DNA of 63,996 nt, the filler included, from Atractiella rhizophila (lineage: Eukaryota), in NCBI GenBank assembly GCA_021432655.1. It is 4 parts of 4 records of this genome, joined end to end, with 100 filler letters (N's around TTAATTAATTAA, not from the genome) between each part and the next. Parts side by side here need not be neighbours in the genome. Positions count along the whole stretch, not along the records: positions 23,712 to 47,282 come from MU271802.1; 3 more parts are not named here. One strand, written 5' to 3'. A program made the position numbers and the translations under genes. Shown here one piece after another: positions 1 to 60,965 of the stretch. Positions within the stretch are counted from its first letter, which is position 1; each line of letters begins with the position of its first letter. The notes under the pieces are model-generated. The model did no database searches. It was given only the letters and a program-made list of their open reading frames with translations, and was not told the origin of the DNA.

Positions 1-2774
1 CTCCAGTTTCTTATTCGACATGGTACTCGGAATCGCAGGGCATTGCTCGATGATTTCTGGTACATGCCGTCTGCTGAGCTGCTGCTGAATCGCCTTTTGC
101 ACCATCTCCACCAAATCTTTGTCCAACCGCTTGTGCTCAGGCAGAACGACGAAGAGAGCGACGCGTTCGTTGTTATCTGCTGTCTTTTGGCCGACGGCTA
201 TTGAGTCGACGATCTCGTCACGGAAGTCCTTTTCGAGGATGTAATAAAGCCTGTACCATGGATGAGTGAAATTGCAAGAGGGAAGAGCAAACAGACTCGG
301 CGCTCCCAAACCGCACGCCGGATGGATTGAGCACTCCGTCCGACCGTCCAAGGACGAGAGTGCCGCCGGTGACAGAGTTCATGTAGACGTTGTCGTTCAT
401 GTTGAACACGGGGGATGGGAAGTCGGAGAAATAGGTCTCTTGATATCGTTTGCCGCCTTCATCCCCTGTCCCCGCATTCCTACTTGAGAATCCAGAGACA
501 GCGAGCGGGAAAGGACGAACCGACGAAGCCTACTGGCATATTTGGGAAGGCAGTACGAATGACCATGGTGCCTTCTTGATCGTATACCGGTTTGCCTGCA
601 ATGAATAAATGGTTGGATCAATATCGAGCTCTAGCATGCAAAAACACACTGTACCATTATCATCGAAAGCCGCCAGATCGATCCCCAAAATCGGCACTTG
701 TAACTCTCCTCGATAGACAGGAAGGGTATGAACGGAATGGAGCAACCCTCCTCCAATCTCCGTGCCGCCACAGTTATTGGACAAGAACGCATTTGGTACC
801 TAAGTTTCGAAAATTATCAGCTATCTCCCACTTCGGATGGGTTAAGGAGGAAGACGTGCCTCTCGAGCGATGTAATCGTAGACGTCTCCCGTTATTGGAG
901 CCCCAGTGGTATAAACTTGTTTCAGGGAGGAGATGTCGCGTTCTGCAGAGGGGACGAAGCGATTTCGAGCCAGCGATTGGATGTACCGAGGGGAGATTCC
1001 AAGTTGCGCTACCCTATCGCCGATAGTCAGAATTCATCCTGCAAAGTTAGAGGAAACGGACTTGTATTTCTCGACCAGCCTCCAGAGAACCTCTTGGGGA
1101 TGGAATGGCGAGCCGTCGTAGCACAACATGGTCCCTCCTGTGGCCAAAAAGTTGACAGAGAGGTTATAGACTATCCAACCCATCTGCGAAGCGCTGTGAG
1201 CATTTGTGATCTCGTTTAAATGGGGGAGGTAAGAGAGCGCACGGTAGAGAATTGGAGCACGGTGTCTCGATGGTCTAGGTTCATGTGGAGCATATTCGTC
1301 ATCTTCCTGCTCAAGAGTAGTCCCCCACCAGGTCCTAGGATCGATTTGGGCTTTCCGGTCGTCCCTAACCAGCCAATCGAGCCATCGAGTCAGCACATCC
1401 TCTTGCCGTAAAGGCGTAAAATGAAATGGTAAGGGGCGACGCACCGGAAGAGAAGACGATCCATATTGGCCAGCTGAAATCAGCCCTATGGAACTCGATA
1501 TTCTTCGGCGCGGCATTTCCTGATTTCAAGAAGGCATTCCAAGTTTGGGTCTACACATCGGAATTGAGAAAAGAGAAACGTCAGTTTCATCTTAAAGGCA
1601 CCATCAAGAGAAAGCGCACCTTTACCCCTTTGAATCCTTTCAAACTATCCGGCACAGGTTCGCGAGAAGGGACGAGGTGTCCGATGACGATGACATGCTC
1701 GATCCCTCCCACTTTGACAAGAGCGTCGACGACCTCCCTAGCGCGTTGCGATACGAGATGCTCCTTTCGTCCGTACCTGTACTTGTCGATGGTGAAGAGG
1801 ACCTTTGGCTTGATGATGGAGTATCGGTCGATGACTGCGTGGGATCCGAATTCTGCAGCATCCATCCATAAGTCGGAATCTCAGTTGCCGAGAAGGGAAG
1901 AGAAGGGGAAATATACGCACCGGCGGGTGTGGAACTGAAGATCGCTCCTACAGCTATCACGGCGAGATAGACGACGACCATCTCCACGTTCGACGCTCCA
2001 AAGGTGACGACTGAGTCTCCAGGCTTAACACCCAACTTCCTGAGCGCTACAACCGCTCTTCCAACCTATCCCCAATCCAACGTCAACAACACGTCTCTGC
2101 TTTCAGATATATAATGGATGGGGCGGCCCACTTGGTCATACAGCTCAGCCCAACTCACACGCCCCGTCTCAACAGGCTCGTGCGGAGATGAAGAGGATGG
2201 GTCGGGCTCGACGGTTCCTATTACGGCTGTGGCTGTTGGGGAGCGAGCGTTGGGATGGGAGAGGAGGAGATTTTCTGAGAAGCTGCAAGGGAATAATGTC
2301 AGTTCTCATGATGAAGGAGAGAGAGAAAACGAGGATGATGGCGCACTTGAAGGATGCGCCGGGGAACCACCGCTGTGGTTTGTTCATTGGTATCGACCTG
2401 TCGTGTGCTGGCTGTAATCGTCGAATATATGTAAGAAAGAGTTGTGAAGAAAAAAAAAGAGAGTGACGCACCCCGTTTCCTTTTGAGCCTACGAAGCCGA
2501 AGTAGTCCCAACAGTCGCTCCAGAACTCATCCGTCTTCTGCTCCCACCACCAAAGACATCAAATCAATCCCCCACACTTGTGATGAAGATTGAGACGCAC
2601 GGAAACGCTCCATCGATGGAGATCCCAATAGGATTTGAGGTCGTAAGCACGTCGAGCGTTGACCCATTTCCTAAACTTCTCGATGTGCGGCTCCTCCCCT
2701 TCGTGAGGACGTGGACCTCCCGGTGACCAGAAGAGGGGAGGAGTAGCTCGCTTGGCTGGATTGATGGAGGTCAT
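1..2774 (-). CDS. AACS: Acetoacetyl-CoA synthetase (acetoacetate-CoA ligase), multi-exon, 3' end runs off the window
   Basis: Spliced exons give MTSINPAK..YDLKSYWDLHRWSVS, GVKPGDSVVTFGASNVE..AVGAIFSSTPAEFG, IIKPKVLFTIDKYRYGRK, LFSSGTTGKPK (AMP-binding loop), GTMLCYDGSPFHP and LGRSDGVLNPSGVRFGSAE, all typical of AACS. Confidence 0.92.
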
Positions 2775-3191
2775 GTGATCGATACGTCACGCGTCGCGAA
2801 TATCTCTTCTGTCGCTGTTGTTGTTAGGTGGTATTGGCGGCTGGTGGTCGTCGGATGGTGAATGGAGGATGGAGGATGGAGATGGATCGGAGTGTTGATG
2901 GTTGATGCTTCTTTTAGCTGTAGTAGTGAGGCGCGAGTGCCGGCTGACGTGCCGGAGAACGCCGAGTGGAAAGCAAGCCTCCGGCGTTTTAGTTCGTCCA
3001 CGGTGTTCTGCTCTCGCTTTCGATTTGGATTGTCGGCTATATTATCGGTGTTTTGTTGTGCCGTGGCAGGCGTTTCGTAGGCAGGACATTTAAGATGTCG
3101 CACTCTCTCCATCCGTCCCTTCACCATCTACATCTACCTTATACTTACATCAGCCATTGTCAGCCACCACGGTAGAGTAGAATAGAAGACC

Positions 3192-6100
3192 ATGTCCCCA
3201 GTCGCCATCGATTCTCCCTCCTCTTCGAACGTTACATCCATCAACGGAGCGATCTCCGCCCTCAAATCAGCCCTCCCAAAGCCCATATCAAACATCTCCA
3301 ATGGCGTCAACTTGAACTCGAATGTGAACGGAGCGCAGAGGCTTGACTTGGAGAAGGAACATTCGATCATACCCAGCTTCGTAGCTGACGACCTACCCGT
3401 CCATCCCTCGAGAAAGGCGAACCCGCCAAAGGTCAGCTCGAGCGATGAGGTGTTTGGTCCGAGACATCCTTCTTCTTCGTCAGTCTCCTTCCTTTCCTCT
3501 TCTGTCCATGTTCTTTCTGTTCTGATGACATGGATATTATTGTTGGTTTAGGTATCAGATGCTCCCTCAACCGCTTGGTCAGAGGCGCCCCTTAAAGCTC
3601 ATATATGTAGGAGGCGGTGCGAGTGGCATCAATATGGCCTATAAGGTCAAGACGCACCTCAAGGATGTCACGTTGACCTGTTATGAAAAGAATGCTGGGT
3701 TGACTGGAACCTGGTTTGAAAATAAATATCCTGTAAGCCTCTTCTCTTGTTTCCTCCCTTCATGAGCAATCAGTTACTTCCTTACACTTTGAGATTGTTC
3801 TCCCAAGTTCATGAGGAGCTGAGGATTTAGCCGCTTGAGAGCCGTTATTCTCATTAACTAGTAGAGTTAGTGATATCTCACGGTACCAATTGTTCATTGT
3901 TCCACATTCATGAGCAGCCACTTGTTTGCCTTTTAAGCTTTCAGTGGAGTGGTAGGGATCCTATTTCTATGAGTTCAGCAGGTGTTAGTTATTCAGTTGT
4001 GAAGAGTTGGTTTCACACGGCTGATAGAGCTGTTGGTAACTCTCCGTGGCTGAGAACCCAGTTGTTCCTTCCGAGGGTGTGATGATGATGACTTGAGGAG
4101 TTGTTTATTCCCGATAATCGCGGGAAGACTCCTCTTTTGCTCCAAAGGATTGACCATGCACCGAATAGGGATTTAATTTGATTGCTGAACAGATGATGCT
4201 TCTATTTGATGTCACAAGGGGGTAGTAAGTTCCTAGAATTTATCCAGGGCTACTCATTCTCTATGATCGTCTGTTGGCGATCTTTGTGAGAAGTTGGTTA
4301 TCTTATTTGAAAGCATGAAGAGTAGACATTTGTGACATTGAGAGACTGCGAACAAACAACTTCTTACTCGATTTCATTGGAATCAGGGATGCGCATGCGA
4401 TATTCCCTCCCACACCTATCAGTTCACATGGGCGCTCTACCCAGACTGGCCCTCCTAGTATGTCCTCCACTCGTCATCTCCTTCATGCGCTCATTCATGA
4501 CAGCTATTCGACCTCCGACCAAATTCAAGCCTACATGGAAAAGGTCGTCGACGACTTTGACCTCCGAGGATACTTCAAGACCTCACACGAAGTCGTAGGT
4601 GCTCGTTGGGACGCAGAATCCTCGCATTGGATTGTGAAGGTCGTCTCGGAAGGGAAGAGGGAGGAGGCTTTTGAAGACTGGTGCGACTTCTTTATCAACG
4701 GTTCCGGTACGCCATCGTCTCTTTTTTTCATCCATTTCAAGTGCAAGAAGGTTGATGGAAGCTTGGTAGGGCTGTTGAACGCCTGGAAGTGGCCTGATAT
4801 CAAAGGTCTCCATGACTTTAAGGGAAAACTCACCCATACTGCAGCGTGGGATCGGTCCATTTCGCTCAAGGGAAAGAAGGTCGCCTTGATCGGAGTCGGA
4901 TCCTCAGCAGTTCAGGTGCTCCCTAACATTCAGGGAGAGGTGGAACACGTCTATCACTTCATCAGATCCAAGACTTGGATCACACCCTCTTTTGCGGCTA
5001 AGTACGCTGGACCTGGAGGGAGCAATTTTGATTATGACGAGGAGAGGAAAGAGGCGTTTAGGAAGGATGAGGTCAAACATCGGGAGTAGTATGTTTTCTT
5101 CGTCCTTCGCTTGTAAAGCATTTGCTGATTGGTCGATGCAGCATCCAGAATATCGAGTTCGAACTGAACAAGCGTTGGAAATTCGTCATTAAGGATTCAG
5201 AGGCGCAAAAGGAGATCTTCGACTTTTTCAAGAAGGAGATGATAACTGCTTTAAACGGCAGACAAGATCTAATCGATATCCTTGTCCCCGATTTCGCTGT
5301 CGGTTCGTCTCTCCTCTCTCCATCAAACTTCTCTGTCCACATACTGATTTTCATTGGTGCATGGGTAGGTTGTCGTCGTCTCACACCAGCCCCTGGGTTC
5401 CTTGCTGCTCTACAGAAAGAGAACGTGACACCTGTGACAACTGGAATCGAGCGTGTGACGGAGAAGGGGGTGATGGATAGGAATGGAAAGGAGTACGAGG
5501 TGGACGTGATCATCTGCGCGACTGGCTTCGACATCTCTTTCAAGCCTCGGTTTCCATTACTTGGGACAAAAGGCGTAGACCTGAGGCAGGTTTGGAAGGA
5601 TAGGGCAAGGGCTTATCAGAGCATGTTTGTTCCTGGATTCCCCAATTATCTCGGTACATTCCACGTCTTTCCTTTTCTTCTCCGTGTCCTGATGAGATCG
5701 TTTGTTCAGTTGTCATGGGTCCTGGCTCGCCTTCTGCTCACGGTGCACTCATCCCTTCGACGGAACACGTCTCGGACTACGCGATAAAGGTCCTTCACCG
5801 TTTACAGACTGAACCGATAAAAACAATCGAAGTAAAGCAAGACGTCGTGGATGAGTTGTACGAACATGCACAAGAACAATTGAAAACTACGGCGTGGGCT
5901 AGCACTTGTAGTTCTTGGTTAGTCATCCTTGTTCTATTCCTCCGAGTTCGAAGGGATTGATGGATGTTGGATGGACAGGTTTAAGAACGGTAAACCAGAT
6001 GGGCCTCTCGATTCATTGCATCCTGGCGGAAGGCTCCATTATTTCTCCACACTTCAGAACCCACGGTGGGAAGGTACATTTTCCTTTCTTCATCCTCAGT

Positions 6101-23611: not shown

Positions 23612-23711
23612 NNNNNNNNNNNNNNNNNNNNNNNNNNNNNNNNNNNNNNNNNNNNTTAATTAATTAANNNNNNNNNNNNNNNNNNNNNNNNNNNNNNNNN
23701 NNNNNNNNNNN
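23612..23711. other. Artificial contig-joining linker (N44-TTAATTAATTAA-N44)
   Basis: Exactly 100 nt with a six-frame stop cassette; identical at 47283 and 60866; genes beside the linkers are truncated. Confidence 0.97.
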
Positions 23712-32776: not shown

Positions 32777-35010
32777 ATGGCGCAAACACTCGATGTGCTT
32801 CACAACCACCAACCGGCTACGCTCATTGTTGGACCGGACGGGTTGAGGATCAAAAGCGAGGGGAAAGTAGGTCACGGATCGAGTGCGTATTCTGTGCCGT
32901 GTTATTCTGTGCCGTGTTATTCTCTCTTCACATGAACATAACCGTCTGATGAACTCCAAGACGTTATAGATAACATCCTTTCAGCTTGTCTGCCGTCTTC
33001 AGGTCCGTCCTTCCTGACAACACATGCCACTCTCTTAGGAAGTTGGTCTTGTTAGGTTCTGGCAAGGAAGACTTCTACGCCTTTGCACACATTCTCAATT
33101 TGAACGTCGAAGACCAATCTCGCACGATCACTCTGCATGCATTTGCTTCTTTAAAGGCTTCCAAGCTATCTGTCCTTCGCTTCAACATACCTGAGAATTT
33201 GAAAGATGCCGGGCTTGAAGAAGCGAAGAAGTTCGCGAACCACATTCTAGAGCTTGCTTATCAGGGTGAGGTTTAATTTTTCCAACGTTCATCATGGCTT
33301 ATGCGCATTCCTGAAAGGGGCAATCGCACCTCCTAACAAGAGGAGTATTCTTTTCATTGTCAATCCATTCTCAGGCCAGGCAAAAGGACAAAAAGTCATT
33401 ACGCGCATCCTTCCATGGTTTAAGGCGGCTGGGATCGCTGTTAAAACGGAGCGTGTGTCCCACATTTTTTCTCGTTGACGATAACATTGAAAGGAACGGA
33501 AGTGACCAAACACGCTCAACATGCCTCTGAGATAGCGGCCAAAATGTCTCTTGACGAATATGACACCATCACCACTGTCTCTGGCGACGGATTAATCTAC
33601 GAAGTCGTTCAGGGTCTTGCTAATCGACCGAAGGATGCATGGAAGGCTTTAAAGACGATAAACTTCGGAGTCATACCAGCAGGTAACCGTTCATGCTCTC
33701 TTCTGTCGCTCCACTATTCCCTATCCATGGCCGGACGGTCTAATCGAGACATTGTGCAGGCTCAGCAAATGCCGTCTCCGTCTCTATGAGAGGACCGGTA
33801 GAGACCAGGAATATGGTAGCTAGTGTTCTTGCTGTCATCAAAGGTGAGATTTGCCAAACATCTATGAACGACCATCATTCCTTAGGAAACCGGGTTAGGG
33901 AAAAGGACTTCGCTCGGCCTGAGCGTGGTCACTACAGGGACAAGAAGGATCTACTGCCTACTATCCCAAGTGTATGGCATCATCTCTGACCTTGACATCG
34001 ATACCGAACACCTTCGGTACAGTCTCCTTGATCTCGCTCCGGAAGACGGATTGACCTAGTGTGAGTGCAGATGGATGGGCGAGTCGCGTTTCGTTTATGG
34101 TTTCATCCGTGGAGCCCTTCAAAAACGACACTGCGATGGCATTTTAGAAATGAAGCTTGCACCAAATGGAGGGAATAAGCGGGCTATGCTCGAAGAGTTT
34201 CTGCAGAACGGGAATAAGAAAAATTTGGACGAGTCAGACTTACATCCCGTCGACCAGGACAATGAGGAGACTTGGAAACTCCCTGCGCTCAAATACGGTA
34301 CAGTGAACGATCCTCTCCCTGAAGCTGCCGCCAAGAAGCCGTTGATCACAACAACGACACCAATTGTTTCTGACGACGCAAACAGAAAGAAGCAGTTAAA
34401 TGGAGAAGACGGAAGGTGGCTCAGGTTGGACCTTAGTATGGTTTCCTTGATGGCAGGCAAGCTACCCTACCTCGCATACAACCTCATGGCCTTTCCACTC
34501 GGCAATCCTGCTGACTCGTATATCGACGTGCACATAATACCCAAGGCGAATTCGGTAGGGGAGATCCTTTCTTGTCTTGATGGGACTGAGGCTACCGGAG
34601 GCACCTTCTGGAAGGACACAGTAAGCTCCTCCTCAATTCTTCCAATTGCATCTCACTCGCGCGTCCGTGCCCAACAGCAATCCTACTACAAAGTAGAAAT
34701 GTATCGCTTCACGCCCGTGAGAAGTTCCTTCCGCTTTGGGTAATATTTCTTTTGCCGCTGATGATGTGAAACAGAAAGCGGTACCAAAATTCCATAAAGG
34801 AGAGATAGCACCAATCGCCTTTGATGGGGAATATCTCAAGCCTTACGAGGCTTTTCAGGTGGAATGCCTGCCAGGAGCGCTTCAGTTCCTGACTGTACGA
34901 CACCTCTCCTGCGTCTGAGATAATGTGCTTTGCTGACGTTATTTACCAAGCTCGACGGATGGTACCTCCCTCCGGATCACACGGAACAAATCAGTAAACT
35001 GGAAAAGTAA
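32777..35010 (+). CDS. Sphingosine / long-chain-base kinase (LCB4/LCB5-like, DAGK domain)
   Basis: IVNPFSGQAKG, TVSGDGLIYEVVQGL, GVIPAG|SANA, DLDIDTEHLR|WMGESRF, IAFDGE; ends LDGWYLPPDHTEQISKLEK*. Confidence 0.9.
32888..32923. repeat. 15-bp tandem repeat (tattctgtgccgtgt x2.4) in kinase intron 1
   Basis: Read directly from the sequence. Confidence 0.85.
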
Positions 35011-36108
35011 TACGTTAGCTTTGAAACTCCAGGACTTGTCACACCTCACAGAGGGCCGTTCTTTTGGATTTGTTTTGCTTGCGATTTGATAGTCAGCTAC
35101 GGTAATAATCGGTGTCATTCATCACGCAGGATCAGTTATTTATGATAACATATCCCAATCATTCGTTCAAAAAGCAAGCAAGTCTCACGCAATAAGACGA
35201 ACAAAGAGAATTTTGAATCAAGAACAAACCCGAAAAGAGGAAGGATAAGTAAGCGACGAGAATACGAGTACAATTGCTGATTACACAAGATTTATCCTTC
35301 CAACAGAGCGTCGTAATATAACTCAGCAGCGATCTCACAGTCTAAAGGTTCGCACAGAGGTAATGTATCCGTCTAAGCACTGCAGTTGAGAATCTGAGAA
35401 GCAGATATACTAATTGGATAGAACGTGGATCTAAGAGTTGGGTTTCGGCCGTGAGGAATCTGTTGATGATTCTGAAGATACCATCTCGTGACTGCGTAGA
35501 TGATGATTGAGAGCGAGAGGGGGATACGGCGATGCTGCGTTGCGTGCAGCTTGGCGAGAATTTGTGGCAGGCTGGTCCTCCATGCTCTGTTTACGATTGC
35601 GAGAGGCAGCAGCGCGTTTTGAGGGATCTTTTGTTCCTTTCGCTCGATTGCGCTTCTTGACGATGCCGGTATTCAGACTCAATGGGCGATCCACGCCATG
35701 AAGATTGCGGAATAGACCACAACTGAAGAGAGACAAAGTTAGCTTAAGACCACTCTCGCAAAAGGAACATACGCATTGCAAAGCGGACGACCTTCCGCAT
35801 CACGCCTCCAAAGAGGTGTGTTCTAGCAGTCATCGATTTGAGTACAGCTCCTCAGAAAGTGAGGGGATACGCACAGATGTTCTACAGTTCCCACAAACCA
35901 TGGGTATATCGGAACTTGAATTCTTATCCGAAATCCTCGCAGCAGCTACTTTCCCAGCTAATGACACTTCGCCAATGGAGTTAGACCTCTTCTTGCTCGT
36001 GCCTTCACCGAGATCTTTATTACTGGACAATTTCTCTCCTGCTTTCGATTTGCTGTCCGTTATACTCGACATTGCTAAACTGGCCTTATTTGGGAGAGAA
36101 CCCCGTTT
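34297..36108. repeat. Tandem duplication B, unit 1 (1812 bp)
   Basis: Runs ggtacagtgaacgatcc...gagagaaccccgttt and is repeated at 36134-37957 after an A25 spacer. Confidence 0.95.
35431..36108 (-). pseudogene. 5'-truncated duplicate of the GATA factor's zinc-finger exons
   Basis: Copy of 37276-37957, truncated at the poly-A junction. Confidence 0.85.
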
Positions 36109-36133
36109 AAAAAAAAAAAAAAAAAAAAAAAAA

Positions 36134-36842
36134 GGTACAGTGAACGATCCTCTCCCTGAAGCTGCCGCCAAGAAGCCGTTGATCACAACAACGACACCAA
36201 TTGTTTCTGACGACGCAAACGGAAAGAAGCAGTTAGATGGAGAAGACGGAAGGTGGCTCAGGTTGGACCTTAGTATGGTTTCCTTGATGGCCGGCAAGCT
36301 ACCCTACCTCGCATACAACCTCATGGCCTTTCCACTCGGCAATCCTGCTGACTCGTATATCGACGTGCACATAATACCCAAGGCGAATTCGGTAGGGGAG
36401 ATCCTTTCTTGTCTTGATGGGACTGAGGCTACCGGAGGCACCTTCTGGAAGGACACAGTAAGCTCCTCCTCAATTCTTTTAATTGCGTCTCACTCGCGCG
36501 TCCGTGCCCAACAGCAATCCTACTACAAAGTAGAAATGTATCGATTCACGCCCGTGAGAAATCGCTTCTGCTTTGGGTATTCTTCCTTTCGACACTGATG
36601 ATGCGAAACAGAAAGCGGTACCAAAATTCCATAAAGCAGAGATAGCACCAATCGCCTTCGATGGGGAATATCTCAAGCCTTACGAGGCTTTTCAGGTTGA
36701 ATGCCTGCCAGGAGCGCTTCAGTTCCTGACTGTACGACATCTCCCCTGAGATAAGTGTGCTTTGCTGACCGTATTTACCAAGCTCGACGGGTGGTACCTC
36801 CCTCCTGATCACACGGAACAAATCAGTAAACTGAAACAGTAA
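36134..36842 (+). pseudogene. 5'-truncated duplicate of the sphingosine kinase 3' exons
   Basis: GTVNDPLPE...ISKLKQ*; no 5' half. Confidence 0.85.
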
Positions 36843-37957
36843 TACGTTGGTTTTGAAACTCCAGGACTTGTCACACCTCACAGAGGGCCGTTCTTTTTGG
36901 ATCTGTTTTGCTTGCGGTTTGATAGTCAGCTACGGTAATAATCGGTGTCATTCATCACGCAGGATCAGTTATTTATGATAACATATCCCAATCATTCGTT
37001 CAAAAGCAAGCAAGTCTCACGTAATAAGACGAACAAAGAGAATTTTGAATCAAGAACAAACCCGAAAAGAGGAAGGATAAGTAAGTTCTTGCTCAACGAG
37101 AATACGAGTACAATTGCTGATTACACAAGATTTATCCATCCAACAAAGCGTCGTAATATAACTCAGCAGCGATCTCACAGTCTAAAGGTTCGCACAGAGG
37201 TAATGTATCCGTCTAAGCACTGCAGTTGAGAATCTGAGAAGCAGATATACTAATTGGATAGAACGTGGCAATGATCTAAGAGTTCGGTTTCGGACGTGAG
37301 GAATCCGTTGATGATTCTGAAGATACCATCTCGTGACTGCGTAGATGATGATTGAGAGCGAGAGGGGGATACGGCGATGCTGCGTTGCGTGCAGCTTGGC
37401 GAGAATTTGTGGTAGGCTGGTCCTCCATGCTCTGTTTACGATTGCGAGAGGCAGCAGCGCGTTTTGAGGGATCTTTTGTTCCTTTCGCTCGATTGCGCTT
37501 CTTGACGATGCCGGTATTCAGGCTCAATGGACGATCCACGCCATGAAGATTGCGGAACAGACCACAACTGACGAGGGACAAAGTTAGCTTAAGAGCAGAC
37601 CACTCTCGGAAAAAAACATACGCATTGCAAAGCGGACGACCTTCCGCATCACGCCTCCAAAGAGGTGTGTTCTAGCAGTCACCGATTTGAGTACAGCTCC
37701 TCAGAAAGTGAGGGGATACGTACAGATGTTCTACAGTTCCCACAAACCATGGGTATATCGGAACTTGAATTCTTATCCGAAATCCTCGCAGCAGCTACTT
37801 TCCCAGCTAATGACACTTCGCCAATGGAGTTAGACCTCTTCTTGCTCGTGCCTTCACCGAGATCTTTATTACTGGACAATTTCTCTCCTGCTTTCGATTT
37901 GCTGTCCGTTATACTCGACATTGCTAAACTGGCCTTATTTGGGAGAGAACCCCGTTT
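36134..37957. repeat. Tandem duplication B, unit 2 (1824 bp)
   Basis: Near-identical to 34297-36108 with scattered SNPs and indels. Confidence 0.95.
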
Positions 37958-40450
37958 CGTGAGCTTCAAACTCCCCGTACGAGTGACTGGAGGAGAAGGT
38001 GAGCCATTCCTGGAGCTTTCACCACTGAGGAGGGAATTGGGACTGAAAGTAAACGATGCCTCGCTTTCAGACATGAAGTGACCGTGATGTCGGTTAGTCT
38101 GAACTTGAGACAGGTTGACGAGTGTCGGTCCCACGGAATCGAAAGATCCGACCAGTGAAGTGTCTCCTGCGTGTGGTGAGACTCCGAGTCCAGGTGCGAA
38201 GGGGTCGAGCATGTCAGGTGGGAGGAAAGGATGGTGGAAAGCTCCATGGGGCCAATGAGGAGGATAAAGCGCTTCAATTGGCGGATGGTGGCTTCCATCG
38301 AAGGAAAACGAACCCGTGAAGGCAGACTTCATCTCTTCTGGGATTGGGATAGAAGAAGAGTCAATAGGAGGAAATTGGTTCATGCTGAGATCGGGCGGGC
38401 GGGCGAGACTGAGTCCCGAAGGTGCACCGAGGTGGGGTTGCCCGACTGGGGCAAAGAGTGCCGGGTAGGAGTCCAGACTGGTTACAGGAGGAGTGGAAGT
38501 TGGGAGAGGATGACGGAAACCGGGATTGGGCAGTGATTGGGAAAGACCTTGTGAGAGTCCCCCCAAGACAAGCGGAGAATGCTTTAAACCGCGCTGGAGA
38601 CCCTGTGGCACCATGTCACGCCATCGGCAACACATCTTACTTGATGAAATACATACCAGGCTGGTTTCAGGTTGCGGGTAGTGAAGGGACTGAGGAATCT
38701 GTGGGAATGGTGTTGGAACAGCTTTGAAACCTCCAAAGCCTAAGCCTTGAGGATCAAGAACACCATTGTCCACCGTGGACGAAGCATCCCTATCCCCTTT
38801 CCGTGTCTCCAGGAGGAATTTCAAGTTGCTTGTAGAAGATGAGGTGGAGCTAGGGGGATCCATGTTCTTGAAAATCGTCGCATGAGTTTTACCAGGTGAC
38901 GAGTGAGAGCTGGCCGCGGGAGTGAAAGAAGGGATGTCGTGGAGCGAAGTTGGGATGGAGGTCGAGTTGTTTTCGAGCGATTGGAGGTTGATGAGCTGGT
39001 TGATCGTGTCTTCAATACTCCCAAAACCATCATCGGCTCCATGAACCTGCTGGCCCTCTGGTGAACTCTTCTTCTCCTCCCCCTCCTCATTACTCTCAAG
39101 TATAAAGTTCTGTTCACCGAAAAAGCTAGTGTGTCCCAACTGAGGAAGAGAGATTCGATTCCCTATTGTGGCCCTCGAACGAGAGCGGGATTTCGATTGA
39201 GCCCTCCAGTCCATCGAGATCGTGTCCGTCCTCATCCAGTCCATCCTCGACCGCGAACGAGATTGCGACTTCGCCCTCCAATCCATCGCATCGGGATCGA
39301 CGTCGTTGGGAGGACTATGGCTAGTGCTTGCGCTACCCCTACCCCTTCTACCCCTCCTCTCCTCCGCTTCATCAAACGACACACGTCTCAGCGACTCCTC
39401 GTTCTCCTCCTGTGACACCTGCACACCTTTAGGCTTCTCCGTTTCTTTCTCCCTTTCATCCACTTCTCTACGATTATTCTTGAGATTCACGCCCATCATC
39501 CTCCACGTCAAATTCTCCATCCTTTCCCCATTCGGCAACGTCTTCCTCGCCTTGACAAACAGCCTCCACACCTTCGCAGCCAACGGATCATCCTCCTTCA
39601 AAAACTCATCTCCCCCAAACTCGAGTCCAGCGAGGTCCTTCCGGATCTGATACGGCGTCACAAACTTCTCCTTCCTTGTCGCCACGTCTTTGACTCCATA
39701 CGAATCCAAACTTTCCTCCTTAAAAGTTCCGACAGATCCCTGAAAGCTATCCAATTCCGCCTCGAGATGCCCAAGATCGCTCCTCAAATCTCCCGGCAAC
39801 TTTCTCCCTTCTCTCTGTCTACGTTCTTCCGCCTCCACCTCCGTCTCGACTTCCTTTCCTTTCCCCTTCTCCGTCTCCTTCCCTATCTCCTTCTTCTCTT
39901 TCTCCTGCGAAGACTTCTTCCTCCTCTCCCTCTCCTTCTCCTTAGCGCTCTGCTTCTCCTTCAACTGCTGATGCAACTGTTCCTTCGGTACGAGACCCGG
40001 AAGACCCTTATCAAAGTCTTCCGGCTTCACCGGATTCCCAACCGTCGCACTTGATCCAAGGATAGAAGGAGCATGACCCTGTAAGGACATGCCCATGAAG
40101 CCCTGCTGCAAGGTGGGGGACTGCAAGACGTAACCGCCCAACAATTGAGGGGACAGCGCGCTCGGAGAGGGGAATGTGGGCGGACGATGGTACGTTGCGT
40201 AATTGAAGTGTTCCATGGGGAGGGGCAGGGGGTACTGGGGGAGGTGATGGGAGGTCGAGGGGATCGAGGGCGTGACGGAGGGAGATGGAGAGATGGTCTG
40301 GCTTGATGTTCCGGAGCGTGAGTGAGGGTGGTGGGAGGACGGAACGCCCCCGCCGCTGTCTACTGTGAACTTGCCGCTCCTTTGACCCGATCGCCAGCCG
40401 GGTGGCGGGTTCGTGGGATCGTATGTGTGAGGGAGGGACGAAGAAGCCAT
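37276..40450 (-). CDS. areA: Nitrogen-regulatory GATA transcription factor (AreA/NIT2/Gat1-like), AUG-initiated form
   Basis: DUF1752-type segment DPLAAKVWRLF..LPNGERMENLTWRMM; spliced GATA finger CGNCRT..TPLWRRDAEGRPLCNA|CGLFRNLHGVDRPLSL..VKKRNR. Confidence 0.9.
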
Positions 40451-40814
40451 GGATCTGGTGTAAATAGTTAGCTCCTTATTGGTTGTGCTAATCGTTATGC
40501 AAATGCCAGAGTCGGCTGAAACATGCATGGGCAAAATAAATTGTTCCCTCCTTGTGTTGGGATGATGCCATCGGCAATGAAACTATTGACCTTGCGGATG
40601 ACAGGAGGACAGTACATAAAGCGAAAATAAAATAGTGATCCCAATGGAGAAGATACACAGGGATGCCGTAATCCATCAATTAAGCATGCCCAACAGGTGC
40701 CTTTCAAACACTCTATGTGTGTATGCGGTCACAGGCATCGTTCGCCCCGTTCACATTCCGCTCCATGCACCACCCAACACCTAACGAAACAAACGAGAGC
40801 AAAGAAGGACTCAC

Positions 40815-41374
40815 GCAGCGTGTCCAACTCTATCCTCTTCTCGAGCGTTCTCTTTCCCGTGCACAAGAGAAGAAGGAGGATTGATGAACCAGCTATCGTC
40901 GGTGTCCTCAGTCCCGGCGCTATTCCTTCCGCTCGCGCTTCCGCTTCCCTCGACGCTGTCCACGCTCTCTGCTTCGAGACTACCCTGTTCGATGAAGGAA
41001 TCGAAAAAAGTGAGAAAATCGCCGTCTGAGATGCTGACTGCGGCGCCGTCGGAGGGCTGAGGGGTGCTGGGGAGGAGGGAGGACAGGGTTGTGGTAGCCA
41101 CGGCGCTTTGTACTTCTGGATAGAGTGAAATGTGCACCGAAAGTTGGTTAGGTGGAAGTATGGATGGATGACTGGACGGAGGATCGTGAGCAGTGATCGC
41201 TTTTCGGAGTCGGTTCAGTTCGATCGGTGCTTTGGATCGTGAGAGTCCTATAACTAGTTGGCTAGAGAAGGAGCAGCTGGTGAGTGCAAAAAGATGCTGC
41301 GGGAGGCTGAGGATTCGTGAGATCGTCGTCGAACTCGCTGAGAAGAATAACTTGAAGGAAGAGGAATGCGATGG
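40815..41374 (-). other. Upstream exon of the GATA gene: AUG-free leader, open and in frame with the CDS
   Basis: Donor GTGAGT at 40814, branch GCTAAC ~40470, acceptor CAG ending at 40455; the junction reads gc|a tcc ATG. Confidence 0.7.
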
Positions 41375-41535
41375 TTATTAGGCACAGCCGGGATATCCCG
41401 GTCCGCATTCCACGCTGGATAAAACTTTAACCTTGCATTAACATTGCACACGTGATATCCTTCAGCATCACTCTTGTAGTATAGCTTATCAAGTACATCC
41501 ATTGCAGCACGTCTGTTATAGAGTCATCTGCCAAC

Positions 41536-42078
41536 ATGTCAACTTCCACAGCACCCGCTCCCTCGCCCTCCCTCGTCCGATTCGCCTCCAGCGTGCTCTC
41601 CCTCCTCCGCTCCTGGTCCGCACTCACCCTCGTCCTCTCGCACAACCCCACCACGGGCTGCACCGTCGAGTCCTTCGCCGAAGAGATCGTCTCCCTCTTC
41701 CTCTCCGAAGAGACGATCCCGTCCCAAGAAGCGGTCGAGGATTTCGTGCTCGGGTATTTCGATGAGGACCTTTCGACCAGTTTGGAGGATGGGTCTGAGG
41801 TGGGGGTTGCGAGGGATTTGAGGATGTTGTGGACGGAGAGTCTTGCGGAGGGTGAGGGGGAGACGATGCGGAGGGTGAGGGAGGTGGAGGGGAGGATGAA
41901 GGGGAGGAAGGTCGAGGTGAAGGTGGATGAAGATGAGGAGGTTAGTGGGAGTGATAGTGAGGAGAGCGGAGAGGACGACGTGCAGATGGATGTTATGGAA
42001 CCTTCTACCAAGGGGAGAACAAAACCTGAGCCTGTTGTCGATGAGGACGGTTTTACGTTAGTCCAGAAGAAACGGTGA
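41536..42078 (+). CDS. TSR2: Pre-rRNA-processing protein TSR2
   Basis: LLRSWSALTLVL..VEDFVLGYFDEDLSTSLEDGS..VARDL; acidic region; VDEDGFTLVQKKR tail. Confidence 0.88.
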   Translation: MSTSTAPAPSPSLVRFASSVLSLLRSWSALTLVLSHNPTTGCTVESFAEEIVSLFLSEETIPSQEAVEDFVLGYFDEDLSTSLEDGSEVGVARDLRMLWTESLAEGEGETMRRVREVEGRMKGRKVEVKVDEDEEVSGSDSEESGEDDVQMDVMEPSTKGRTKPEPVVDEDGFTLVQKKR

Positions 42079-47282: not shown

Positions 47283-47382
47283 NNNNNNNNNNNNNNNNNN
47301 NNNNNNNNNNNNNNNNNNNNNNNNNNTTAATTAATTAANNNNNNNNNNNNNNNNNNNNNNNNNNNNNNNNNNNNNNNNNNNN
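47283..47382. other. Artificial contig-joining linker
   Basis: N44-TTAATTAATTAA-N44. Confidence 0.97.
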
Positions 47383-49506: not shown

Positions 49507-49556
49507 NNNNNNNNNNNNNNNNNNNNNNNNNNNNNNNNNNNNNNNNNNNNNNNNNN
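49507..49556. other. Scaffold gap (50 N)
   Basis: Plain N run with no linker cassette. Confidence 0.97.
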
Positions 49557-60865: not shown

Positions 60866-60965
60866 NNNNNNNNNNNNNNNNNNNNNNNNNNNNNNNNNNN
60901 NNNNNNNNNTTAATTAATTAANNNNNNNNNNNNNNNNNNNNNNNNNNNNNNNNNNNNNNNNNNNN
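60866..60965. other. Artificial contig-joining linker
   Basis: N44-TTAATTAATTAA-N44. Confidence 0.97.

Follow-up and report, generated by a model that had tools for sequence, protein, structure and literature searches.

The stretch of Atractiella rhizophila DNA analysed here (63,996 nt of assembly GCA_021432655.1, filler included; hereafter the window) carries, on a contig of 23,571 nt (23712-47282, MU271802.1), a gene that by its domain content is an AreA/Gat1-type GATA nitrogen regulator. Our results suggest, with a probability that we put at about 0.55, that this factor bears an acidic N-terminal extension of 92-97 residues whose translation would begin at a near-cognate codon. A. rhizophila is a Pucciniomycotina basidiomycete, and AreA/Gat1 factors determine the use of nitrogen sources by fungi, being controlled through transcription, mRNA stability, localisation and partner proteins. 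The evidence comes from a leader exon that contains no AUG, from a splice junction present in RNA contigs and from a codon-usage signal, on the strength of which the last ~290 nt of the exon look protein-coding in frame with ATG 40450. The features on which the argument turns all lie on the minus strand; frame 0 denotes the frame of the leader exon that continues into ATG 40450.

40815..41328, minus strand: leader exon (exon 1), as covered by RNA contigs of runs X1, X2, X3 and X13.
41102..41374, minus strand: 5' half of the open frame; its 91 codons are rich in C (36%, against 14% G) and give no coding signal.
40815..41101, minus strand: 3' part of exon 1, coding-like by codon usage, 95 codons and 2 bases of a split codon.
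41099..41101, minus strand: GTG, candidate near-cognate start at the onset of the coding signal, context agcgccGTGgct, with G at -3 and G at +4.
41084..41086, minus strand: CTG, candidate near-cognate start at the onset of the coding signal, context acaaccCTGtcc, with A at -3.
40982..41026, minus strand: acidic-aromatic patch DGDFLTFFDSFIEQG, read in frame 0.
40886..40909, minus strand: acidic-aromatic patch EDTDDSWF, read in frame 0.
40455..40814, minus strand: leader intron, 360 nt with 9 ATGs, from the X3 joint and the X13 depth contrast.
38657..40454, minus strand: exon 2, with the annotated ATG 40450-40448 and the FTVDSGGG and GATA_AreA motifs, from PF08550 and the match to the public protein P0105.
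37276..38602, minus strand: remaining coding exons, with the zinc finger split by two introns and the stop TAG at 37278-37276, read against P0105 and PF00320.

The translation of 40450-38657 is matched at 100% identity by the public protein P0105 (BT69DRAFT_1341738, 1004 aa), which begins MASSS at ATG 40450. Its N-terminal half holds the GATA_AreA motif PF08550 (exon 2 residues 294-320; E 1.6e-13, 50.7 bits against a cut-off of 20.9), and a single C-terminal GATA zinc finger, PF00320, is precomputed for it and reads CGNCRTS..NTPLWRRD..CNACGLF. It is from this pair, which is also found on nearly all of the orthologue matches, that we assign the gene to the AreA/Gat1 type. The nearest relatives are distant, with identities of at most 41-43% across about a fifth of the query.

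An initial annotation, made from the sequence, had proposed that 41374-40815 on the minus strand is a 186-codon, AUG-free upstream extension of this factor and gives rise to a non-AUG-initiated isoform. Its description of the sequence was borne out. The 560 nt contain no sense-strand ATG, within an ATG-free run that spans 41407-40767, and frame 0 has no stop in 186 codons, as compared with 3 and 7 stops in the other two frames; a TAA TAA (41380-41375) directly precedes the open frame. Exon 1 ends in ...GC before a GTGAGT donor (40814-40809), the leader intron has a GCTAAC (40472-40467) and the acceptor CAG (40457-40455), and exon 2 runs from 40454, such that the joined reading gc|a tcc ATG makes frame 0 continuous with ATG 40450. 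There are 9 ATGs in the 360-nt leader intron versus none in the 560-nt exon stretch. The four near-cognate codons that had been listed (ACG 41326, CTG 41218, GCC-GTG-G 41101 and ACC-CTG 41086) are all in frame 0, and 41026-40982 and 40909-40886 hold the two acidic-aromatic patches. The chance of 186 stop-free codons had been estimated at ~1e-4 for even composition, and higher in this C-rich strand; the figure of 1e-4 was too optimistic: among 20000 dinucleotide-preserving shuffles of the 560 nt, frame 0 stayed open in 230 and any frame in 664, while 683 were free of ATG and 19 combined the lack of ATG with an open frame.

The RNA evidence consists of Logan contigs from four runs (X1, X2, X3 and X13) rather than raw reads, and the kind of library behind X13 is not on record. 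The proposed junction 40815/40454 is present in one contig of the X3 soil metatranscriptome, where the alignment skips 360 letters at CT..AC, the minus-strand form of which is GT..AG, and the shorter arm has 90 letters. At 8 of its 223 aligned letters this contig departs from the window, and it therefore comes from a slightly different strain or a relative in which the junction is kept. In X13, contigs have loose ends at both sides of the junction, which is compatible with the spliced form, and the contig that retains the intron has a depth of 48 as compared with 900-5800 on the exons at either side. Contigs of X1 (41024-41322) and X2 (41070-41328), both with 0 differences and no loose ends, cover exon 1, as do those of X3 (41055-41193) and X13 (40877-41262); 41331-41471 has no RNA cover in any of the four runs. 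As the contigs reach 41322 and 41328, transcription does not start downstream of exon 1, an outcome that would have told against the proposal, and these same contig ends give a weak hint that the 5' end of the mRNA lies at ~41322-41328.

Codon usage provides the evidence that part of exon 1 may be translated. The model compares in-frame with out-of-frame codon frequencies and was trained on Pfam-backed open reading frames (ORFs) of the window. In a positive control with a six-ORF model, scored leave-one-out in 95-codon windows, the right frame was chosen in 93% of 107 windows of true coding sequence (CDS). With this model the 3' half of the open frame (41101-40817, 95 codons) has a delta of 12.3 versus a CDS median of 9.6, a score attained by 1 of 500 open-frame mononucleotide shuffles, while the 5' half has 2.5, attained by 153 of 500. 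A second model, trained on 2025 codons only, excluded the GATA gene; it gave 18.0 for frame 0 of 41101-40817 and -6.2 and -12.5 for the other frames, while the true CDS, cut into six blocks of 95 codons, ranged from -4.2 to 19.5. Across all six frames of the whole window, 0.67% of 12446 windows attain 18.0, grouped in 12 loci, of which most are real genes and 2 lie opposite long plus-strand ORFs. None of 1000 open-frame dinucleotide shuffles attained the observed statistic for the 3' part, whereas 741 of 1000 did so for the 5' half (-7.0). The cumulative log-odds are flat from 41374 to ~41104 and then climb steadily by ~19, sliding windows are concordant, and the onset at ~41100 is precise to about +/-40 nt. 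Thus a coding signature is found for the last 95 codons of the extension first proposed (41101-40817), while its first 91 codons (41374-41102) look like non-coding sequence. The start of the true CDS itself (95 codons) scores -4.2, and a signal-free 5' half is therefore not proof of untranslated status.

The onset of this signal lies at GTG 41101 and CTG 41086. Since the signal is restricted to the last 95 codons, ACG 41326 and CTG 41218, further upstream, are poor candidates. The GTG is invariant in every contig that covers it. A purine at -3, as at both candidates, is a hallmark of start contexts in Cryptococcus according to the text of Wallace et al. (2020, PMC7049704). The annotated ATG 40450 has T at -3 (context gcatccATGgct) and the ATG of the neighbouring TSR2-like gene has A at -3. 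Initiation at the GTG would give a predicted product of 1101 aa (+97 residues) and initiation at the CTG one of 1096 aa (+92). RNA structure downstream of the GUG lends no support, with z = -1.47 and 15 of 200 shuffles folding equally well, and there were no Rfam matches over 40300-41600 at E up to 1. A fungal 3' splice-site look-alike lies close by, consisting of CTAAC (41151-41147) followed 30 nt on by tatccag (AG 41117-41116); all four RNA contigs are colinear through this site (41116-41151).

We propose that the mRNA starts near 41328, with a 514-nt AUG-free first exon; the 360-nt leader intron is spliced out in the RNA contigs. Given that 5' end, at which the contigs only hint, the mature leader has no AUG, and its coding part would be readable only through a near-cognate start at its 5' edge. 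Some scanning ribosomes would initiate at CUG 41086 or GUG 41101 and produce the long form, while most would scan on to AUG 40450, where a weak T stands at -3, and produce the annotated short form of 1004 aa. The 3' part is acidic (17 D+E versus 4 K+R) and carries the two aromatic-acidic patches, and it is plausible that the extension would serve the factor as a further module for activation or regulation. It is a matter of speculation that start-codon stringency might set the ratio of long to short forms. The non-AUG isoform first proposed is thus favoured by a spliced AUG-free leader and a frame-specific coding signal, but it is narrowed to the last 95 codons, with a start that we infer.

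Orthologues of the factor provide a wider context. In many basidiomycetes the motif WR..G.FTVDxGGG follows a Met at a distance of 16-30 residues, and this Met is where many gene models, that of Atractiella among them, begin. Upstream of it, a Tremellomycete block, GPSPRSTTSSKSSP...RPLLPKP, is common to P0017, P0051 and P0096; in P0051 the residue aligned with the Met at the Atractiella start is a T. The Microbotryomycete orthologues P0002, P0009 and P0066 have upstream blocks of their own, DVDFSAF[VIL]D, STPTAS..SSGGSP and ESALTSASTSPPF, the first of which is acidic-aromatic and sits within 8-22 residues of the start in most Microbotryomycete models. The Met downstream of the conserved blocks is the start in most Cryptococcus and Kwoniella models and in the model of Microbotryum lychnidis-dioicae. 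From these comparisons, many annotated AreA/Gat1 starts in basidiomycetes may have been set too far 3' or may be those of a second isoform. Orthologues in two other classes of basidiomycetes have coding sequence upstream of the Met; such sequence is hence common in the family, which raises the prior for an extension in Atractiella.

Similarity searches with the extension itself weigh against the proposal. Its sole match in a HMMER search of 1.84 billion representative proteins was its own public model P0001, which was again the sole match in a word-index search confined to lengths near that of the query. Scans of metagenomes found 591 pattern stretches with the extension and 301 with the main exon, of which none was confirmed in either case. 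There was no Pfam family on the extension or on the 170-aa product of the public model, and the ESM Atlas gave no usable match for the extension. The extension was also unlike the N-termini of the orthologues. It was unlisted at E up to 100 in an hmmsearch with a Microbotryomycete N-terminal profile (13-16 orthologue N-termini); with a position-specific scoring matrix (PSSM) for DVDFSAF[VIL]D[DE] its best score was 2.5, versus a training minimum of 20.7, at rank 49 of 89797; the DF..FFD patch, which resembles this motif, ranked 32-68 among ~77-90 thousand positions; and the -1.1 bits reached with a Microbotryomycete block profile were equalled by 848 of 1000 shuffles. Nor was the Agaricomycete motif DWxxIFxxPLNPxxFAxL matched (PSSM from 16 non-redundant segments; best -7.8 or -27.1, rank 39-58). 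The resemblance of the two patches to activation domains, to which the initial annotation had pointed, thus stays a resemblance after the failure of the orthologue N-terminal motif tests: the patches are a functional look-alike for which homology is not demonstrable. Two further matches were rejected. A Rhodotorula block aligned with extension residues 72-109 (blastp against 117 orthologues, E 0.034) is not colinear, because in the orthologues it lies downstream of the FTVD region, and the query lies partly in the signal-free 5' half. A blastp match to residues 59-78 of P0008 (10 of 20 identical, E 4.3) is not significant.

Sequence variation gives no sign of purifying selection, which again tells against translation. 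In the 3' part, one variant is synonymous (41078) and two are non-synonymous (41062, P to A; 40859, H to Q), a number too small for a selection test; in the 5' part there are 41172 (S to T) and 41211 (R to Q). None of these five variants, the 4 listed for X13 (41062, 41078, 41172 and 41211) among them, creates a frame-0 stop or an ATG, and no indels are listed. The differences of X13 from the window amount to 12 in 386 nt of exon and 7 in 389 nt of intron. Several other observations also weigh against the proposed extension. The frame is open for 91 codons further upstream, which a start at 41101 or 41086 does not explain; the second codon model had a small training set; the acceptor-like CTAAC...CAG (41151, 41118-41116) coincides with the point where the coding signal sets in; and contigs can neither fix a 5' end nor exclude rare isoforms.

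One alternative, which we consider unlikely, is that exon 1 is an ordinary long spliced untranslated leader in which upstream AUGs are selected against, its open frame and codon bias being due to chance, to composition or to what fades of an N-terminal exon once initiated at an AUG. Open frames are not rare among shuffles of this C-rich exon (the 230 and 664 of 20000 given above), two of the three frames are open in the 3' half of 41374-40815, and an untranslated leader would agree with the lack of a homologue or motif match, with the one synonymous and two non-synonymous variants and with an exon that is no better conserved in X13 than the intron. The codon test also has false positives, as seen from the 2 of 12 top-scoring loci opposite plus-strand ORFs, and the leader intron itself scores 5.0 in one frame in 40-codon windows. 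What stands against this alternative is that the frame-specific signal is on a par with the highest-scoring blocks of the true CDS and is attained by none of the 1000 open-frame dinucleotide shuffles, that it lies in the one frame that enters ATG 40450 and that it sets in at near-cognate codons in good context. There is no plus-strand gene opposite, and the polarity of the splice is that of the minus strand. The public annotation pipeline likewise called the leader frame coding.

It is also possible, although improbable in our judgement, that the extension is coding but initiated at an AUG in an upstream exon. The public model P0001 (KAH8915116.1, BT69DRAFT_1341739), a 170-aa 'hypothetical protein' that covers the leader frame, has exactly such an exon in frame 0; it begins MLKDIT at ATG 41468, has an intron at 41451-41307 and follows the open frame to a TGA inside the GTGAGT donor.

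41452..41468, minus strand: ATG mini-exon MLKDIT of BT69DRAFT_1341739, in the public model but without RNA contig support.

No contig of the four RNA runs covers this mini-exon, and the X1 and X2 contigs continue for 16-22 nt beyond the acceptor of the model before they end. The donor of the mini-exon is GTGTGC, which is not of the GT[AG][AGT]GT type, and the sole donor of that type on the minus strand in 41600-40800 is the one at 40814. Other upstream exons could be joined near 41247 or 41116, where there are acceptor-like sites (~41248, and 41118-41116 with CTAAC at 41151); rare isoforms are dropped by contigs, and the contig that carries the gene extends only 5.9 kb upstream. The X13 contig, moreover, is ~97% identical to the window from 40877 to ~41235, departs from it at ~41240-41262 and ends in 31 unlike letters beyond ~41262. 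Of its 12 differences 4 are listed, and the other 8 are reckoned to crowd into the last ~30 letters; hence the leader of this relative differs upstream of ~41240, which, at least in that relative, is a point against the proposed leader. The 31 letters are absent from the window at up to 3 mismatches, and they could stem from a rearrangement of the leader, from another exon or from chimeric assembly of the contig. Against an upstream AUG exon, the contigs of X1 and X2 follow the genome without a break across each of the three putative acceptors up to their ends at 41322 and 41328, X13 passes the 41116 site and X3 covers 41055-41193. The sole reported joint is 40815/40454, with 41331-41471 devoid of RNA cover; by our count, a join of the mini-exon to 41115 would break the frame; no ATG occurs in the unlike letters of X13; and 12 nt separate the mini-exon from the point at which RNA contigs of the divergent TSR2-like gene begin. 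The RNA contigs thus give no AUG exon upstream, the finding that would have overturned the initial proposal, while an unseen one is still a rival to it. That there are two separate genes, as in the public annotation (the 170-aa BT69DRAFT_1341739 ending at the TGA in GTGAGT, and the GATA factor BT69DRAFT_1341738), is hardly tenable: the intron-retaining contig of X13 would fit, but its depth is 48 versus 900-5800 on the exons, the splice seen in two runs joins both models, neither a homologue nor a Pfam family was found for the 170-aa product, and one spliced transcript is cut into two gene models by that annotation.

Non-AUG extensions of fungal transcription factors and AUG-derived N-terminal isoforms of yeast Gat1 are both known already (PMC5487733 and PMC4615157, respectively). 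In Neurospora crassa, cpc-1, the homologue of GCN4, has a conserved non-AUG N-terminal extension according to the text of Ivanov et al. (2017, PMC5487733). Both genes encode fungal transcription activators with a long leader, where in-frame near-cognate initiation upstream of the AUG gives a longer isoform, as is proposed for Atractiella, and in both the use of the near-cognate codon may respond to the stringency of initiation. In contrast to the Atractiella factor, which is of the GATA type with a leader that is spliced and AUG-free and a proposed extension, cpc-1 encodes a bZIP protein and has AUG-initiated upstream ORFs, and its extension is backed by conservation and cell-free translation, as described in the same paper. 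The Gat1 isoforms of Saccharomyces cerevisiae start at M40 and M95 (statements in Georis et al. 2015, PMC4615157, citing Rai et al. 2014), and altered cytoplasmic retention is reported for them there. The likeness lies in a nitrogen GATA activator family with several N-terminal isoforms per gene. In yeast these have AUG starts, for which alternative transcription starts are given as the simplest explanation in PMC4615157, whereas in Atractiella there would be a non-AUG candidate in one spliced mRNA.

Among basidiomycetes, Cryptococcus has near-cognate N-terminal extensions of ArgRS (AUU) and LeuRS (ACG/AUU), as set out in the text of Wallace et al. (2020, PMC7049704). These share with the proposed case the basidiomycete host, near-cognate codons with a purine at -3, leaky scanning to a downstream AUG and two proteoforms, which here are proposed. 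The Cryptococcus extensions are mitochondrial targeting signals with ribosome profiling, as reported in that paper, whereas that of Atractiella is predicted to be an acidic, disordered-looking segment of a transcription factor. The basidiomycete orthologues of the factor itself (Microbotryum P0002 and P0009, Phenoliferia P0066, Kwoniella dendrophila P0017, P0051 and Cryptotrichosporon P0096) likewise have coding sequence upstream of the Met that precedes WR..G.FTVDxGGG; their N-termini are AUG-annotated and conserved within classes, while the Atractiella extension is AUG-free and has no detectable similarity to them. The areA gene of Aspergillus nidulans has an upstream intron, a dispensable N-terminal region and several in-frame AUGs; it shares with the Atractiella gene a 5' intron and alternative N-termini and differs by AUG initiation. 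We know of no report of non-AUG start choice as a control of AreA/Gat1. A full-text search of freely accessible main texts that combined nitrogen metabolite repression, near-cognate and GATA found no papers; the main text of PMC5487733 has no mention of nit-2, areA, GATA or nitrogen, and GAT1 and GATA are absent from that of PMC7049704.

The gene has a divergent neighbour.

41536..42078, plus strand: TSR2-like gene, divergent from the GATA gene (PF10273, 6.1e-11).

RNA contigs on the side of this gene begin at 41480-41482, leaving a gap of ~150 bp to the GATA transcript. The metatranscriptome runs X1 and X3 each have one contig of ~135 nt with shared ends at 41480/41482 and 41616 and with flanking adapter letters; the ends at 41480/41482 may be the 5' end of the TSR2-like mRNA. 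Downstream, a tandem direct repeat of ~1.84 kb (34291-36110 and 36128-37960; 94-99% identity, spacing 1832-1849) has a second copy that extends over the 3' part of the GATA gene, zinc-finger exons and their introns included, and a first copy that terminates on the plus strand in a run of 25 A. Possible origins are a genuine duplication, retro-copying of an antisense transcript and an error of assembly. The window as a whole is composed of separate contigs joined by 3 spacers (23612-23711, 47283-47382 and 60866-60965), each consisting of 44 N, TTAATTAATTAA and 44 N, and has a further 50 N at 49507-49556.

If the proposed extension is real, the AreA/Gat1-type factor of A. rhizophila would offer a concrete case open to experiment, defined by two named codons, a single junction and a single protein to be tagged. 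Should the leader prove to be untranslated, it would serve as a caution that an AUG-free open leader can mimic coding sequence. The case also shows that a public annotation cuts one transcript into two genes. More tentatively, and well short of even odds, a single AUG-free leader may yield two forms of the regulator, an acidic aromatic module of the activation type being included only upon CUG or GUG initiation. Given the conserved blocks upstream of the 'canonical' Met, at which many models start, hidden N-terminal isoforms of AreA/Gat1 may then be widespread in the Basidiomycota.

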